From positions 1 to 52,969 of IMG/VR virus record IMGVR_UViG_2718217885_000014: a stretch of 52,969 bases of DNA; one strand, written 5' to 3'. The notes below the pieces were generated by a model. The model saw only the letters and a list, made by a program, of their open reading frames with translations. It had not been told where the DNA came from and did not search any database. Position 1 is the stretch's first letter. Each line of letters opens with the position of its first letter. The DNA comes from a virus (taxonomy: Duplodnaviria; Heunggongvirae; Uroviricota; Caudoviricetes). Below are positions 3,892-51,601 of the stretch, one piece after another. The translations under genes were made by a program, and so were the position numbers.

Positions 3892-4128
3892 TCAATATAC
3901 ATTTTGCACCTTCGAGATAGTAATGGCTGTTACTGTAATATGAGTTACAAACAGCTTCATACCCAGAGCTACTGATGTATCAACACGATTCAACAATACC
4001 CGATATTTATTCCATGCCTCCAGCAACGATGTTTCTTCCTCCGTTGTGATTTCCAGGTCTACAGCATCCTGAAGTGGCGCAATATGCTCACTGGCTATCT
4101 GTATCACATAAAACTGCAACACCCGCAT
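3892..4128 (-). pseudogene. tail fibre assembly protein remnant (tfaX-like fragment)
   Basis: 78-aa ORF containing a motif remembered from Tfa-family proteins ([17 protein letters not shown]) but lacking the rest of a Tfa protein; lies just distal to the intact tfa. Confidence 0.35.
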
Positions 4129-4408
4129 TGCTGCCTGCAGCCCCCGAAAACATGACCGACATCATTAGGGTGAACATCGTCAGCCCCTGTATACAGCTGC
4201 CTGTTACTGCTGTTCACCACATCACGCATATCAACAAACGGGAGATTCAGCGTGGAGCAGCATTCCATTATGGCTACACGAACAGTATCAAGTTTCGCTG
4301 TATGACTCAGTGGTGTTGCCGGGCCAATTGTAACTTCGCGATTTTTTCTGGGCTAATTGACGTATAATTCTGGGCGGAAAGCGCGCCCAAAAAGCCCGGA
4401 ATTGACCG

Positions 4409-31193: not shown

Positions 31194-31661
31194 CTATTTC
31201 AGGCACTGAGTACGGATATATTCCTGAAGCGTTCTCAATGCTGCCTGGTCGCTGATGATTCCGTCTCTGATACCGAGAACGTTTCGTCCAGCAACTGGAG
31301 AGAGTTCGACGCTGGCATCATTGCCCACGCGGGCGGTGGCGGTGGCTTCACGCACGGAGCCTGGACAGGTGGCGTTGATCCGCAGGCGCTTACGACCAGC
31401 GGTAACATCAGCACGCAGAGTTTCATTTTCAGCTCTCGCATCGGCTAATTCCCTCGAGTATTTTGCATCGAGCGCAGCAACATCGTGCTGGCGCTGCTGC
31501 ATGTCAGCGATGGTGGCGGTCGCCTGCTTCAGCTCACTGACTTTTTTATCACGCTGTTCTTTGTAGGCGATGGCGTTATCACGGTAATGATTGACCGCCC
31601 ACGACAGGCAGACGATGATGCAGATAACCAGAGCATAAATAATCGCGGCGACTCTGCTCAC
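31194..31661 (-). CDS. Rz: i-spanin Rz
   Basis: N-terminal transmembrane segment [34 protein letters not shown] resembling lambda Rz; probable GTG start overlapping the R stop (GTGA at 31658-31661); track ORF extends to a TTG at 31676. Confidence 0.8.
31235..31426 (-). CDS. Rz1: o-spanin Rz1 lipoprotein, embedded in the +1 frame of Rz
   Basis: [15 protein letters not shown] lipobox signal then proline-rich [10 protein letters not shown], as in lambda Rz1; lies entirely within Rz. Confidence 0.75.
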
Positions 31662-32191
31662 TGATCTATCCCCCAACAGGCTAATGCGCTTTCCTGGTCA
31701 CGACGAATAACCTGTCCATAGCAGTTATTTGAACGTATGCGGCAATCGCGCCCACCATCTTTTATCCACCAGCGAATCGCCTCGCATGCACCCTTACGAT
31801 CACCGGCATTCAGCCGCTTATAAAACGTCGACGGGAAACACTTACCGGGGCCAATGTTATAGGGACAAAATGACGCTATACCCGCTTTCTGTGGTTCGGT
31901 CAGTGGTACTTTAATATTGCGTTCCACCCATGCCAGCGCCTTATCACGTTCAATAGCGTTAACCTGGTCGCATTTTTCCTTCGACAGCTTCATTCCCGGT
32001 ATGACGGGCTTACCATCCACCATTGTGGCACCACGACAGATGGTCCATATACCGGAACCATCGCGGTATGCCGTAGTGTGGTTACCCTCTTTTTCATCCA
32101 GAAACTGGTCAAGTATTTGAGGAGCAGACGCGCCTGCAGCAATCAGCGCCAGAACGGCAGCCGACAGGCCGTATCTGATTTTTGCGTTCAT
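31658..32191 (-). CDS. R: phage lysozyme R (T4-lysozyme family), probable SAR endolysin
   Basis: 177 aa; weakly hydrophobic Gly/Ala-rich N-terminus ([19 protein letters not shown]) then E-D-T catalytic region ([20 protein letters not shown]); resembles K-12 prophage lysozymes RrrD/RrrQ from memory. Confidence 0.85.
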
Positions 32192-32609: not shown

Positions 32610-32825
32610 TTACTCTCCCCGTGCAGCCTTACGCTTGTCTTCTCTGATTTTGAAGTACAGATTTGTCAGATAAGTCAGGAAGCCCAGAACCAGACTCCCC
32701 AGTACACCAATCGCAGCCCACTGTGACGGACTGACCTGATCAAGCCACTGTAAAAACCAGTAGCCAGCACTGCCTGCGGAGGTGCCGTAGGCAATGCCCG
32801 TTGAAATTTTGTCCATGGATTTCAT
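32610..32825 (-). CDS. S: class II holin (phage 21 S-type pinholin) with dual-start motif
   Basis: 71 aa from [63 protein letters not shown], near-identical to phage 21 S; Met1-Lys-Ser-Met4 dual start at 32814-32825. Confidence 0.85.
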
Positions 32826-32936
32826 AACCCCCACCTCGCAGATGCGGGCGTTGTGTAATGGAAACAAAAAAGGCCACCAGCGGCCCGTAAAAACAACACC
32901 CAATCAAAGGCACCCGCAGATGCCTTTTGCGTGGTG

Positions 32937-33089
32937 TTATTCAGATTTGCGCAGTAAAGGCCGGAGCACGACCAGCACCATCACCACCAGCACACCATCT
33001 GCCAGTACCGACATCAGCCGTCCGGTAAAATCCACCACCACTACCAGAAACAGCAGGATGGCAGCCAGCACAAGGCGCGCACTTTTCAC
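32937..33089 (-). CDS. putative small two-transmembrane protein (not in ORF track)
   Basis: In-frame GTG at 33087-33089 overlapping the TGA stop of the upstream TerB-like gene (GTGA); encodes about 50 aa with two hydrophobic stretches (LVLAAILLFLVVVV and VLADGVLVVMVLVVL); internal ATG at 33012-33014 is an alternative start (25 aa). Confidence 0.3.
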   Translation of the reverse strand: MKSARLVLAAILLFLVVVVDFTGRLMSVLADGVLVVMVLVVLRPLLRKSE

Positions 33090-33511
33090 AGGTACTGCTC
33101 CAGTGGTAGCTGCAGCGCCTGAGCAATTTTCTTCAGTTGCGCTTCTTCATCCGGGCCAATGCCGTCCTGGTCAGCGATATCCAGACACAGGCACAGCACA
33201 TTAACTGCGTCATCAGTACCGGCAACATCAGCCAGCTGACGAAGGGCTTCAGCATTGGCAGAGCGCGGCGACGCTTCATAACGGGCGCGGATATTTGCAC
33301 TCATTTGTGCAATCTCACCGGAGAACGGCGCAAAGGCAGGAAGTGCTGCAATGGTTTTCTCCAGTACCGCGATTTCTTTCGCGTCACAGGTGTCGTCAGC
33401 GTATGCAATGGAATACGCACCCCAGACGGTCGCCTCCACTGCGTCGCGGTTCTCCATCTTCTTCACTTCGGTAATGGCCTTGCGAGTTTTCTTTTTGAAA
33501 ATACCAAACAT
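33086..33511 (-). CDS. TerB-like (tellurite-resistance TerB / DjlA N-domain fold) protein
   Basis: 141 aa with TerB-like pattern (acidic helices, LDIADQDGIGPDEEAQLKKIAQALQL); located between the late tRNA genes and the holin. Confidence 0.55.
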   Translation of the reverse strand: MFGIFKKKTRKAITEVKKMENRDAVEATVWGAYSIAYADDTCDAKEIAVLEKTIAALPAFAPFSGEIAQMSANIRARYEASPRSANAEALRQLADVAGTDDAVNVLCLCLDIADQDGIGPDEEAQLKKIAQALQLPLEQYL

Positions 33512-33685
33512 CGTGACTTTTCCTTTTAGTGGGTGAGCCTGCGCCCGGGGGTGACCAGCCCACAGAGAAAGTCACACTGACCATCCCGTAAGCTCACCCC
33601 TGAAAGGCTCTGTGGTTTTTGATATGCGCCGGGCGTGGCGCGGATACAAAAAAGGCCCGCCAAAGCGAGCCGGGAAAAATAAGTC

Positions 33686-33762
33686 TGGCGCGTTGTACTG
33701 GATTCGAACCAGTGACCGATTGCTTAGAAGGCAATTGCTCTGTCCGACTGAGCTAACAACGC
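33686..33762 (-). tRNA. tRNA-Arg (anticodon UCU)
   Basis: 77-nt cloverleaf folded by hand: acceptor GCGTTGT/ACAACGC, D-arm GCTC/GAGC, anticodon stem ATTGC/GCAAT with loop CTTCTAA, T-loop TTCGAAT, encoded CCA. Confidence 0.8.
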
Positions 33763-33775
33763 ATGATGCAGATAA

Positions 33776-33856
33776 TGGACCGCCATCGAGGACTCGAACC
33801 CCGCACCAACAACCCTGTTATCGTGTCGTCTGCTCTTCCTGATGAGCTAATGGCGG
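33776..33856 (-). tRNA. tRNA-like gene with atypical anticodon arm (anticodon not assignable; possibly degenerate)
   Basis: Acceptor CCGCCAT/ATGGCGG, D-arm GCTC/GAGC, T-arm CGGGG-TTCGAGT-CCTCG and CCA are canonical, but 27 nt lie between D and T arms and no standard 5-7-5 anticodon stem-loop could be folded by hand. Confidence 0.45.
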
Positions 33857-33863
33857 TATGTTA

Positions 33864-33939
33864 TGGTGGCCCTTGCTGGATTTGAACCAGCGACCTGGCG
33901 ATTATGAGTCGCTCGCTCTCACCACTGAGCTAAAGGGCC
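33864..33939 (-). tRNA. tRNA with CAU anticodon (Met, or Ile2 if lysidine-modified, as ileZ of phage 933W)
   Basis: 76-nt cloverleaf: acceptor GGCCCTT/AAGGGCC, D-arm GCTC-AGTGGTGA-GAGC, anticodon loop CTCATAA, T-loop TTCAAAT, CCA. Confidence 0.8.
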
Positions 33940-33979: not shown

Positions 33980-35038
33980 TCATCCGTTCTGACTGACTAA
34001 ATCCTGAACTTCCTTGACCGTCTGCTCAAAACGCTCAGTCTCCAGCTCAACGCCAATTGCACGACGTCCCAGCGCCATCGCTGCTTTGACCGTCGAACCC
34101 GACCCCATGAAAAAATCTGCAACCAGATCTCCCGGACGACTGCTTGCGCTGATTATCTGCTGCAACATTTCTGCCGGTTTTTCGCACGGATGTTTCCCGG
34201 GATAGTACTGCACCGGTTTATGCATCCACACATCGGTGTACGGCACCTGCACAGTCACACCGAAATACCGCCGCAAATTTTTATATTCTCTCAGCAGTTC
34301 CGTATACTGCCGGTTCAGTTCACTGTATGTGCTGACCAGCTGGTGGTGTGGCTGCTCCAGTTCACCGCGCTGATGTTTTTCTGCTGCAACACGCGCAAAC
34401 AACGCCTGCAATTTGTTGTAATCAGCTTCGTTCGGTAACTGCCACTGACTGGTACCAAACCAGTGCGAAGCCATGTTTTTCTTTCCGGTGGCTTCCGCTA
34501 TCTGTTTTGACGTTATTCCCAGTTCGGCACGAGCATCCCTGAAATACGATATCAGCGGTGCCATTATGTGCTGTTTGAGTTCCCTTTCTTTTGCCGCATA
34601 GCCGTCACTTTTGCCGCGATATGGCCCCTGGTAATGTTCAGCAAACAGAACGCGCTCTGTGGCAGGAAAATATGCGCGCAGACTTTCTTTATTACACCCA
34701 TTCCAACGTCCAGACGGCTTCGCCCAGATGATATGGTTAAGCACGTTGAAACGTTCACGCATCATGATCTCAATATCAGATGCCAGGCGATGCCCACAGA
34801 ACAGGTAAAGGCTTCCGGCAGGTTTCAACACCCGCCAGAACTGGGCCAGACAGTGGTCCAGCCACTTAAGATAATCTTCGTCCCCTTTCCACTGATTGTC
34901 CCAACCGTTGGGTTTCACCTTGAAGTAAGGCGGATCGGTAACAATCAGGTCAATGGAATCATCAGGCAGGGACTGAATAAAATGCAGGCAATCAGCGTTG
35001 ATTAAATCAACACTGTTTATTTTTACAGTATTTTTCAT
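33980..35038 (-). CDS. DNA methyltransferase (N6-adenine/N4-cytosine family, beta-class), no adjacent endonuclease
   Basis: 352 aa; catalytic DPPY motif near N-terminus (LIVTDPPYF) and AdoMet-binding FxGxG near C-terminus (DFFMGSGST). Confidence 0.85.
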   Translation of the reverse strand: MKNTVKINSVDLINADCLHFIQSLPDDSIDLIVTDPPYFKVKPNGWDNQWKGDEDYLKWLDHCLAQFWRVLKPAGSLYLFCGHRLASDIEIMMRERFNVLNHIIWAKPSGRWNGCNKESLRAYFPATERVLFAEHYQGPYRGKSDGYAAKERELKQHIMAPLISYFRDARAELGITSKQIAEATGKKNMASHWFGTSQWQLPNEADYNKLQALFARVAAEKHQRGELEQPHHQLVSTYSELNRQYTELLREYKNLRRYFGVTVQVPYTDVWMHKPVQYYPGKHPCEKPAEMLQQIISASSRPGDLVADFFMGSGSTVKAAMALGRRAIGVELETERFEQTVKEVQDLVSQNG

Positions 35039-35512: not shown

Positions 35513-35540
35513 CAAAAAAACCGCTCAGCGGCGGGTTTAA
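35513..35540 (-). terminator. candidate rho-independent terminator (possible tR' equivalent)
   Basis: Minus-strand GC-rich hairpin (CCGC-TGA-GCGG core, extendable) followed by seven U (plus-strand A-run 35514-35520). Confidence 0.4.
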
Positions 35541-36193: not shown

Positions 36194-36574
36194 CTAACGA
36201 TCCATCTCTAGCTCAATTTCTAACATCATTAACATGCCATCAACTACACCTTCAGCCTTTTGCAATAAACGCCCAACCCAGCAATCAGAACGCCCATGTT
36301 TACGGGCAAGCGCCATAAACGTCATACCACCTACATAATAATCCACTAATAAATCGTGCAAATCGCTGTTGTTCTTTTTCAGGCGAGCCATGCACCCACA
36401 AATGATCATCGCGTCATCGTCACAACATTGCGGGCGGGATTTTACTTTTGAAGGGATTAGTCCTTTAAATCCTGCAGCAATAGACGACCAGGTGACATCC
36501 TCGTGATTATTTGCCACCCATGCCCCCCAACGTTCAAGAACCATTTGAATATCACGCATCAACTTTCTCCACAA
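36194..36574 (-). CDS. late-gene antiterminator Q (QuuD/phage 82 Q-like)
   Basis: 126 aa; from [76 protein letters not shown] it matches K-12 QuuD from memory. Confidence 0.85.
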
Positions 36575-42671: not shown

Positions 42672-43831
42672 TTACGCCCCCTTACCTCTGAAGAGTTCAG
42701 CGACGAATGAATAAGACGGGCAAGAAATGCCGCATCGTTAATTCGGTCATACAGACTTACAGCCAGCGGTGATTCAGCTTTTTCCAGCATGGGATAAAGC
42801 TGCTGCAACCAGACCTGATGAATTGATGAAATGTAGGAATAGAGTACGCTGGCGTTATGTGCAACGTCGCTCGGTACAGCGGGCTTTGAAAGCTGTTTCT
42901 CCATCTGGTTAAAGGCATTGATGTATGCCTCCTTGAACTGGGCTGCACGTTTGCCAGTGAAGCCCATTGCCAAGAACGCGAAGCCGTCGCGGGTGATGTG
43001 GTAGCAAGGAAGTTTGCGAGTACCGCCGTTGGGCTGGTGTACCCAAATTGATGTCTCCGCAAAATTGCGGGCACAAAACTCTGGAGAACAATCCAAAATG
43101 CGGATCTTTTTCAGAACATCGTCATGACGTTTAGAGAAGAAGTCAGCAACAGCCAAAGAAGATGTAACAGCCTGACCATCAACGATGGCAATTTCAGGTT
43201 GAGAGAGGGTTGGGAGAGTAGTCATGGTGACAGCCCCGGTAGTCAGTTTTTCAGAAAACTCACCACATGGGACGCCAATCACAGAGGTGGTGAGACGTAC
43301 AGGGTTGGCGTTACCGGAGACTACCGAACCCGGCCCGACCGAAGTCGGCCCTGTACGCCCCACCATAATTTGGGCGTAGCAATGCTCATGACACGAAAAA
43401 ACCGCATGAGCGCGGTTATGCTCAGTAATCAATTTCAGGACGCCAATCCCGGCACCCGTTTTATAAGGTGCCTGAACAGTGTAACGTCCCGGAATGGCAG
43501 AATCAATGTGCTGGTGGTCCTTCACACTCAACAAAATCACGCCTGAATTTCCACAAAGGACTAAAGCACTCATGCGGGTAGTCTTTGCGAAGATAGATAA
43601 CGCGCTGTGTATCTGGTTCCCAACGAATAACATGGACATAAAGCCCTCTTCCGTCACGAAACCAGCGGTTAAGTTCCTGCACAACTCGCCCCCCACAGTC
43701 AGGTAAAGTTCTCTGTGGTTACTTACAGCCAGGTGATTTGGTAATCTGCATTCATGCCGTAACAACAGGAGTTCAGCGACGCTGACCACCAGCTGTTGCG
43801 ACAAACGGTTATTTGCCGTTAAACTGTTCAT
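42668..43831 (-). CDS. Rha-family phage regulatory protein with about 200-aa N-terminal extension (possible alternative start at 43225)
   Basis: 387-aa ORF; residues from about 203 (MTTLPTLSQPEIAIVDGQAVTSSLAVADFFSKRHDDVLKKIRILDC) resemble the Phage_pRha domain; start ATG overlaps the stop of the upstream gene, supporting the long form; ATG at 43223-43225 would give 185 aa. Confidence 0.6.
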   Translation of the reverse strand: MNSLTANNRLSQQLVVSVAELLLLRHECRLPNHLAVSNHRELYLTVGGELCRNLTAGFVTEEGFMSMLFVGNQIHSALSIFAKTTRMSALVLCGNSGVILLSVKDHQHIDSAIPGRYTVQAPYKTGAGIGVLKLITEHNRAHAVFSCHEHCYAQIMVGRTGPTSVGPGSVVSGNANPVRLTTSVIGVPCGEFSEKLTTGAVTMTTLPTLSQPEIAIVDGQAVTSSLAVADFFSKRHDDVLKKIRILDCSPEFCARNFAETSIWVHQPNGGTRKLPCYHITRDGFAFLAMGFTGKRAAQFKEAYINAFNQMEKQLSKPAVPSDVAHNASVLYSYISSIHQVWLQQLYPMLEKAESPLAVSLYDRINDAAFLARLIHSSLNSSEVRGRK

Positions 43832-51525: not shown

Positions 51526-51601
51526 TGGTGCCGATAATAGGAGTCGAACCTACGACCTTCGCATTACGAATGCGCTGCTCTACCAACTGAGCTATATCGG
51601 C
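51526..51601 (-). tRNA. thrW: tRNA-Thr (anticodon CGU), thrW; prophage attachment site
   Basis: 76-nt cloverleaf with anticodon loop TTCGTAA and encoded CCA; sequence matches E. coli thrW from memory; integrase converges on its 3' end. Confidence 0.85.

Follow-up and report, generated by a model that had tools for sequence, protein, structure and literature searches.

A probable non-decoding argN relic between two intact tRNA genes of a lambdoid late operon

We analysed a stretch of 52,969 nucleotides (nt) of Caudoviricetes DNA (IMG/VR record IMGVR_UViG_2718217885_000014, positions 1 to 52,969; this whole stretch is called the window). It carries three transfer RNA (tRNA)-like genes, all on the minus strand, within a Q-dependent lambdoid late operon. 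The middle gene is the subject of this work. To judge from its sequence, it belongs to the argN lineage by descent, lacks what defines a tRNA and a tRNA-Arg, and came out as a pseudo-tRNA in the pseudo-tRNA tests that could be run. We favour the reading that it is a non-decoding relic of argN, at a probability of about 0.7, and we consider it almost certainly unable to read codons. According to this model, the argN body was kept and the anticodon arm was rearranged into 28 nt that hold neither a 5-base-pair (bp) stem with a 7-nt loop nor U33 or C35. An original prediction, made from the letters of the window, had left the gene as either a degenerate pseudo-tRNA or an unusual tRNA. We found support for the first in the homology to argN, the missing anticodon arm, and the lesions of sister copies. 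"Degenerate" fits the allele of this prophage and not necessarily all sequences with an argN body, because a large family with scrambled anticodon arms and a strictly selected chromosomal homologue exist.

The three genes lie in this order of transcription:

33864-33939, minus: ileZ-type tRNA, anticodon CAU (ARAGORN tRNA-Met(cat); Rfam tRNA model, 72.5 bits)
33776-33856, minus: middle element, argN-derived, 81 nt, without a canonical anticodon arm (sequence, argN alignment, PGAP "tRNA-OTHER")
33686-33762, minus: argO-type tRNA-Arg, anticodon UCU, reads AGA (ARAGORN tRNA-Arg(tct); Rfam, 71.7 bits)

The outer two were expected to be canonical with anticodons CAU and UCU, and both were called as such by ARAGORN and scored far above the gathering score of the Rfam tRNA model (RF00005, 29 bits). 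Identical copies of the CAU tRNA are labelled "tRNA-Ile" by PGAP (tRNA-Ile2 here) and ileZ in annotated Stx phages, and this tRNA presumably reads AUA once it is lysidine modified. The gene matching the UCU tRNA is annotated as argO in phiP27 and Stx phages. The middle element begins 7 nt downstream of ileZ and ends 13 nt upstream of argO.

From 5' to 3', the middle element reads CCGCCAU UA GCUC AUCAGGAA GAGC AGACGACACGAUAACAGGGUUGUUGGUG CGGGG UUCGAGU CCUCG AUGGCGG U CCA. Its parts are as follows:

33850-33856, minus: acceptor 5' strand CCGCCAU, pairing with AUGGCGG at 33780-33786 in the fold
33832-33847, minus: D arm, GCUC / AUCAGGAA / GAGC, with G18, G19, and A20 (sequence and fold)
33804-33831, minus: rearranged centre of 28 nt, AGACGACACGAUAACAGGGUUGUUGGUG (minimum-energy fold; alignments to argN and to the chromosomal copy of Escherichia coli K-12)
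33787-33803, minus: T arm, CGGGG / UUCGAGU / CCUCG, the same as in argN (partial covariance-model match)
33776-33786, minus: acceptor 3' strand AUGGCGG, discriminator U, and encoded CCA (sequence)

As the original prediction said, the acceptor, D, and T arms and the CCA are normal; the sequence and the fold agree on this. The element has a 7-bp acceptor stem, a discriminator, the CCA, a D arm with G18 and G19, and a T loop of the UUCRA type. What it does not have is an anticodon stem of 5 bp closed by a 7-nt loop in which position 33 is U and position 37 is a purine. The centre consists of an AGACG linker, the hairpin AC-A-CGAUAAC AGG GUUGUUG-GU, and a final G, and it stands in for the 23 nt that form position 26, the anticodon arm, and the variable loop of argN. 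The distance between the D and T arms had been put at 27 nt against about 22; we counted 28 against 23 in argN, and the excess of 5 nt is the same.

With default settings, ARAGORN called only the outer two tRNAs. A canonical fold from a tRNA predictor had been named beforehand as a possible refutation, and ARAGORN gives none for the middle gene. A sensitive search with RF00005 over positions 33740-33890 (151 nt) gave no match to the middle element even at E<=10. The sole Rfam signal on it was a 13.8-bit partial match of its T arm to mascRNA, and other Rfam families gave nothing significant over this element or the K-12 copy. The minimum-energy fold (-27.5 kcal/mol, z = -1.5) keeps the three normal arms; in the centre, AC/GU pairs are followed by a 7-bp stem, CGAUAAC/GUUGUUG, with a 3-nt AGG loop. 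Thus, the claim that no standard anticodon stem-loop can be drawn stands for ARAGORN, with default and relaxed settings, and for Rfam. The 21-nt T-arm/acceptor motif of the family occurs once in the window, with 0 expected in shuffles, and PGAP labels a 100% identical copy in a chromosomal prophage "tRNA-OTHER."

The element might instead be a tRNA that does decode and in which the anticodon arm is unusual, for example through an expanded loop, an intervening sequence of 4 nt, or frameshift-type decoding. All its remaining tRNA features are intact, and at lowered thresholds ARAGORN does return two folds: a tRNA-?(aaca), in which the D stem is mispaired and the loop has 8 nt, and a "tRNA-Cys(aca)" that needs a 4-nt ACGA intron. 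However, these folds require mismatched stems or an intron, and neither has U33. We know of no such intron type in bacteria. Thermodynamically, the centre favours a stem of 7 bp closed by 3 nt, the loop is not conserved among the window element, the K-12 copy, and other family members, and sister copies decay. No acceptable anticodon arm came from ARAGORN (default, lowered, and intron modes) or from Rfam at E<=10, and we rejected the decoding reading as extremely improbable.

The original prediction had placed the trio in the slot that ileZ-argN-argO occupies in phage 933W, and its position does match that in annotated Stx phages. In 933W and other Stx2 phages, argN likewise lies between ileZ and argO downstream of Q. 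We found that a 331-nt query spanning the cluster matched 289 phage records. The best match was Stx2e phage phiP27, at 97.6%; the rest were mostly Stx2 phages at 90-95%. As the argN reference, we used the record of an Stx2a phage in which ileZ, argN, and argO are annotated and argN is a canonical 77-nt tRNA-Arg(UCG). The alignment to argN, which the original prediction had proposed as a check, shows identical ends and a replaced centre. The element and argN are identical over 16 nt at the 5' end and 28 nt at the 3' end (acceptor, 5' D arm, T arm, discriminator U, and CCA), and the stretch that begins in the 3' side of the D loop and includes the variable loop is wholly different. The D loop is AUCAGGAA in the window element and AUCGGGAUA in argN. 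Whereas argN has a canonical anticodon arm (UCAGC / CUUCGAA / GCUGG) that ARAGORN can call, the window element has no anticodon loop. The same rearranged centre is present in phiP27, where the middle element differs by an extra T-stem mismatch (CCUGG) and lies unannotated in a record that marks only ileZ and argO. The main identity elements for ArgRS are C35 together with A20. The window element has A20 and does not have C35 in the right context.

When ACGA was removed from the centre in silico, a 5-bp ACGAC/GUUGU stem and a 7-nt loop, UAACAGG, were restored. Because of this, the proximate lesion looks like a tandem duplication of 4-5 nt (CGACA-CGAUA) on the 5' side of the anticodon stem. The form before such a duplication would also be without U33. 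The window element is a mosaic: its ends are those of argN, its D loop and the start of its centre match the K-12 chromosomal copy over 20 nt, and T-loop position 65 is of the argN type. Simple gene conversion from the K-12 allele was rejected, since the centres differ by several indels; to judge from the alignments, a diverged relative of that allele was at best the donor, or the two share ancestry.

We then looked at how the element fares in other prophages. We searched 5,426 complete E. coli genomes with the 81-nt query and found the window-type allele in 70 of them at >=95% identity (23 at >=99% and 47 at 95-99%). A variant with 90-95% identity, the poly-G type, was present in 1,020 of the 5,426. 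Overall, the rearranged centre occurs in about 1,090 of these genomes and canonical argN in 1,069. An exact-pattern scan of IMG/VR yielded 112 usable copies in 24 variants, 2 of them identical to the window copy and 2 of the phiP27 type. Most of the 112 have lost the T loop, which is replaced by GGGGG(G)nCGGGUCCCC with a G run of 5-17. This variable G run (our loci L004, 3001-3080, and L016-L135) is a slippage-prone tract inside the late transcript. Acceptor-stem mismatches (ATGACGG, ATAGCGG, CCGTCAT, or CCGGCAT) occur in several copies and truncations in a few. Both substitutions observed in the central hairpin, ACGCGATAAC and ACACCATAAC, are uncompensated. In other E. coli prophages, a 66-nt deletion form holds the same slot.

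All the decayed forms share the rearranged centre of the window element, and the window copy is the least decayed form. Because every decayed form has this centre, the change of the centre came before the decay of the body. Most copies carry secondary lesions, so selection on the body was relaxed once the centre had changed. This order, with the centre first and the body later, is expected for a gene that lost its function with its anticodon arm. Next to the dead copies, ileZ and argO are still intact, so the processing of these neighbours needs no middle element there.

RNase P and the 3' exonucleases read the acceptor/T-arm half of tRNAs. By analogy, the middle element is probably still transcribed and processed. 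It is most likely cotranscribed from the late promoter after Q antitermination, because it sits between ileZ and argO in the late operon. RNase P would cut its 5' end and 3' exonucleases would trim it to the encoded CCA, because the acceptor/T-arm half is intact, and the product would be an 81-nt tRNA-shaped RNA. ArgRS probably does not charge this RNA, because C35 is missing, and the ribosome would be unable to use it.

The window element is one member of a wider family, and this family bears on a different explanation, namely that the element is a functional, non-decoding tRNA-like RNA in which the body is what matters. Such an RNA could be a decoy or competitive inhibitor of defence nucleases that target tRNAs, a module for processing the array, or a regulator. 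We found the family by BLAST with the K-12 sequence and by two further pattern scans. Its scaffold is CCGCCAY UA GCUCA..GGA.AGAGC ... CGRGG UUCGAGN CCYCG RUGGCGG N CCA. Members occur on Salmonella conjugative plasmids with prophage late regions, on a Cedecea plasmid, on well over 100 IMG/VR contigs, and in Yersinia phages YeP1-3, where they are annotated "tRNA-OTHER / Pseudo-TTG." The usual place of a member, here called X, is second in arrays of the form tRNA-Met(CAU)-X-tRNA-Thr(UGU)/Gly(UCC)/Arg with spacers of 1-3 nt (IMG/VR loci L141-L254; for example, L143, L142, and L140), and this constant slot speaks for a function. A stand-alone 75-nt member lies on IncC plasmid CP030077 of Enterobacter hormaechei (locus L137, 2502-2576); it has a 5-bp stem and a UUUU loop, and a strong intrinsic terminator follows it. 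This member adjoins blaSED in what appears to be a mobilised segment of the Citrobacter sedlakii chromosome, and it is apparently a second chromosomal lineage.

We classed 88 distinct family sequences by their anticodon loops with ARAGORN. Only 23 of the 88 have a canonical loop, mostly Arg-UCU or Arg-UCG. In another 24 the loop has 7 nt but no U33, in 27 it has some other length, and in 1 it has U33 with a pyrimidine at 37; ARAGORN does not call the remaining 13. Thus, 65 of the 88 (74%) are without a canonical anticodon loop and yet keep the cloverleaf body. Nearly all noncanonical members carry GUUGU as the 3' strand of the hairpin, and the 5' strand is ACAAC, ACGAC, GCAAC, or AUAAC; these 5' variants are one-sided A/G changes that keep pairing with U. 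Their loops are 3-8 nt long and nearly free in sequence. When members were folded separately, most formed a central hairpin of 4-7 bp and a few formed none. In the 73-nt and 78-nt subgroups, the loop is the most variable part of X. Among the eight variants found in the 73-nt subgroup, differences are confined to the discriminator and to three neighbouring loop positions, each with three states.

In our alignment of the 88 sequences (A3, made with MAFFT), the helices are paired in 99.5% (acceptor), 98.9% (D), and 95.2% (T) of cases, and the 7:66 pair covaries, with C-G in 59 and U-A in 27. For the central hairpin, 42.6% of cells are paired; this covariation count is uninformative because A3 is out of register there between subfamilies. 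We also sampled 68 arrays picked by a 14-nt 5' anchor only. Their mean pairwise identities, which carry no phylogenetic correction, are 0.945 for the neighbouring tRNA-Met, 0.919 for the 3' 28 nt of X, 0.660 for the centre of X, and 0.606 for 100 nt of flanking DNA. The body of X is therefore conserved and its centre is about as variable as the DNA around it, although the search patterns fixed 14-21 nt of each member, the 73-nt subgroup included, and body conservation is to that extent built in and inflated.

A related sequence is also present in the E. coli chromosome. In about 5,100 E. coli genomes, the 81-nt query had a full-length match of 86.7% at a single chromosomal site, which overlaps the annotated start of yahM. 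The features of this site are as follows:

E. coli BW25113, CP069132.1, 341041-341121 (locus L003, 3001-3081): tRNA-like gene of 81 nt, unannotated
L003, 2885-2912: promoter TTGACA-16-CATAAT, about 90 nt upstream, conserved

The gene stands alone, with its own promoter and a leader of about 80 nt. The promoter, leader, and element occur together in 5,168 of the 5,426 E. coli genomes (about 95%). Like the window element, the chromosomal copy is 81 nt long, and the two share the acceptor, the D arm, the AGACGACA linker, and the T arm, whereas their centres differ: in the chromosomal copy, a CCAGGA loop closes a 7-bp stem, ACGACAA/UUGUUGU. In ARAGORN, this copy comes out as "tRNA-Ser(gga)," its anticodon lying at position 38. 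Rfam gave no match to it, and the RefSeq record has no RNA feature there. With an exact 23-nt pattern and one genome per species, we found the element only in Escherichia and Shigella, and an exact pattern does not establish absence elsewhere. All 81 positions are identical in E. coli, E. albertii, E. whittamii, E. ruysiae, and Escherichia sp. E1V33, and S. flexneri has one change. In an alignment extending 400 nt to either side, none of the 81 columns of the element varies, whereas 29 of 81 do in the adjoining upstream leader (Fisher p ~1e-21 for the element versus the upstream 190 nt). The sequence conservation suggests that the chromosomal copy is probably functional.

The yahM open reading frame (ORF; L003, 3071-3316) may not be a real gene and may be a spurious ORF. 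It is doubtful because it starts inside the 3' acceptor strand (AUGGCGG), because the terminator-like hairpin located after yahN lies on its opposite strand (L003, 3177-3227, minus), and because E. ruysiae and E. whittamii do not have it. We rejected an ORF that would extend from the K-12 promoter across the tRNA-like gene, given indels and a stop codon in other Escherichia species. The region is transcribed, since yahM-yahN was reported as a convergent transcriptional overlap in MG1655 RNA-seq (PMC12288877) and "yahM" as induced in epithelium-adherent Shiga toxin-producing E. coli (PMC7649339). We looked by eye for ArgR, Fur, and CRP sites in the K-12 promoter, saw weak matches only, and make no claim about them.

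The DNA on both sides of the promoter-leader-element module is unrelated between Escherichia species, as at tRNA integration hot spots. This, together with the mosaic build of the window element, would suit a role at the DNA level, as a recombination or att-type site or a lambdoid module boundary, with the RNA being irrelevant. However, no integrase or att-like partial duplicate lies near the middle element, the site is in the late operon and not at a prophage end, and the family keeps a full cloverleaf body, which goes beyond a core site. We regard such a role as highly improbable.

Known phage biology offers a setting in which a tRNA body could matter. Lambdoid late-region tRNAs are known as anti-defence tools: P2-OLD amputates anticodon arms that have paired CNG motifs at 28-30 and 40-42 plus A37, and the late-region tRNA-Thr(UGU) of phage 21 rescues cells from P2-OLD (PMC12445682). 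Other phage tRNAs escape anticodon nucleases through changes in the anticodon loop (PMC10264068). The nuclease-resistant tRNAs of phage 21 (PMC12445682) and T5 (PMC10264068) also lie in phage arrays and have altered anticodon stems (shortened, CNG lost), and tRNA-Thr(UGU), the anti-P2-OLD type of phage 21, is the usual downstream neighbour of the family members. However, the phage 21 and T5 tRNAs keep a working anticodon and decode, and the window element and most of the family do not. Canonical argN (UCAGC/GCUGG, A37) carries the CNG/CNG motif, whereas the odd family members (CAAC/GUUG) do not; this contrast is at most suggestive. A pseudo-tRNA of Bacillus cereus, "tRNA-Other," reportedly combines a tRNA body with a noncanonical anticodon region, with charging and a regulatory effect said to have been shown by experiment, and it may act outside decoding. 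We know of no sequence relationship between it and the window element.

Three points weigh against a relic. The conserved body and freely varying centre of the family argue, at the level of sequence, against simple pseudogene decay. The chromosomal homologue is, by the same kind of evidence, strictly conserved and under purifying selection across Escherichia. The window allele itself is undecayed, with a flawless acceptor, D arm, T arm, and CCA. Even so, we consider a functional RNA at the window locus unlikely. Most copies in the lineage of the window element have lost the T loop or acceptor pairing, which would be intolerable if the role depended on the body; ileZ and argO do not suffer beside them; and a link of any member to a defence system is hypothetical. 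A non-decoding argN relic thus remains our preferred reading of the window element. For the family as a whole, we offer a tentative and rather doubtful picture: the argN-body sequences may be tRNA-shaped RNAs with a dispensable or fast-evolving anticodon arm, kept in the late-operon tRNA arrays of lambdoid phages and caught in an arms race with anticodon-arm nucleases (P2-OLD, PARIS, and retron effectors) as uncleavable decoys or as an anticodon "chassis." One of them would have been domesticated as an RNA gene of the Escherichia chromosome, and the window element would have been recently inactivated.

The surrounding genes form a late operon of the lambdoid type without stx. As the original prediction stated, the trio lies between a methyltransferase gene and a TerB-like gene, both of which have Pfam matches. 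The other features of the operon are as follows:

First in minus-strand order, ahead of Q, minus: DUF968 protein (Pfam)
36194-36574, minus: Q antiterminator (Pfam)
35520-35532, minus: terminator-like hairpin downstream of Q, tR'-like (consensus match only)
33980-35038, minus: N6_N4 DNA methylase (Pfam)
33654-33671, minus: terminator-like hairpin and U run directly after argO (consensus scan only)
33086-33511, minus: TerB-domain protein (Pfam)
32610-32903, minus: P21-type holin (Pfam)
Between holin and lysozyme, minus: DUF1327 protein (Pfam)
31658-32191, minus: lysozyme (Pfam)

A possible coding ORF overlapping the tRNAs on the plus strand (33612-33842) had no support and was rejected. Elsewhere in the window, a canonical tRNA-Thr(CGU) lies near the end (51526-51601, minus) and may be a host tRNA gene at the prophage junction. 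C4 antisense RNA (Rfam, 82.3 bits; 43283-43370, minus) and isrK Hfq-binding RNA (60.1 bits; 43395-43471, minus) are adjacent and probably mark the anti-repressor or immunity control region of the prophage. An IS009 RNA match (Rfam, 120.6 bits; 3971-4168, minus) is barely over its gathering score of 117.

A literature search found no paper describing the middle element or the tRNA-like gene by yahM. The sequence itself is not new, as the label "tRNA-OTHER" shows; what appears to be undescribed so far is its origin from argN, how large the family is and how it behaves, and the conserved chromosomal homologue. For annotation, the middle gene would be entered as a non-decoding argN pseudo-tRNA. 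Because the third "tRNA" is such a pseudo-tRNA, the window prophage would supply decoding of AUA and AGA and not of the CGA/CGG codons that 933W-type phages add. The rearranged allele is about as common in complete E. coli genomes as canonical argN, and most related prophage genes across Enterobacterales have a tRNA body without a usable anticodon. Because phage tRNAs are known to counter tRNA-cleaving defences, the conserved body and free anticodon arm offer a lead on a decoy or escape role that can be tested. In E. coli K-12, whose genome is the best annotated among bacteria, the chromosomal homologue would count as a new RNA gene; it would also explain away the orphan ORF yahM, and it is the lead most worth following.

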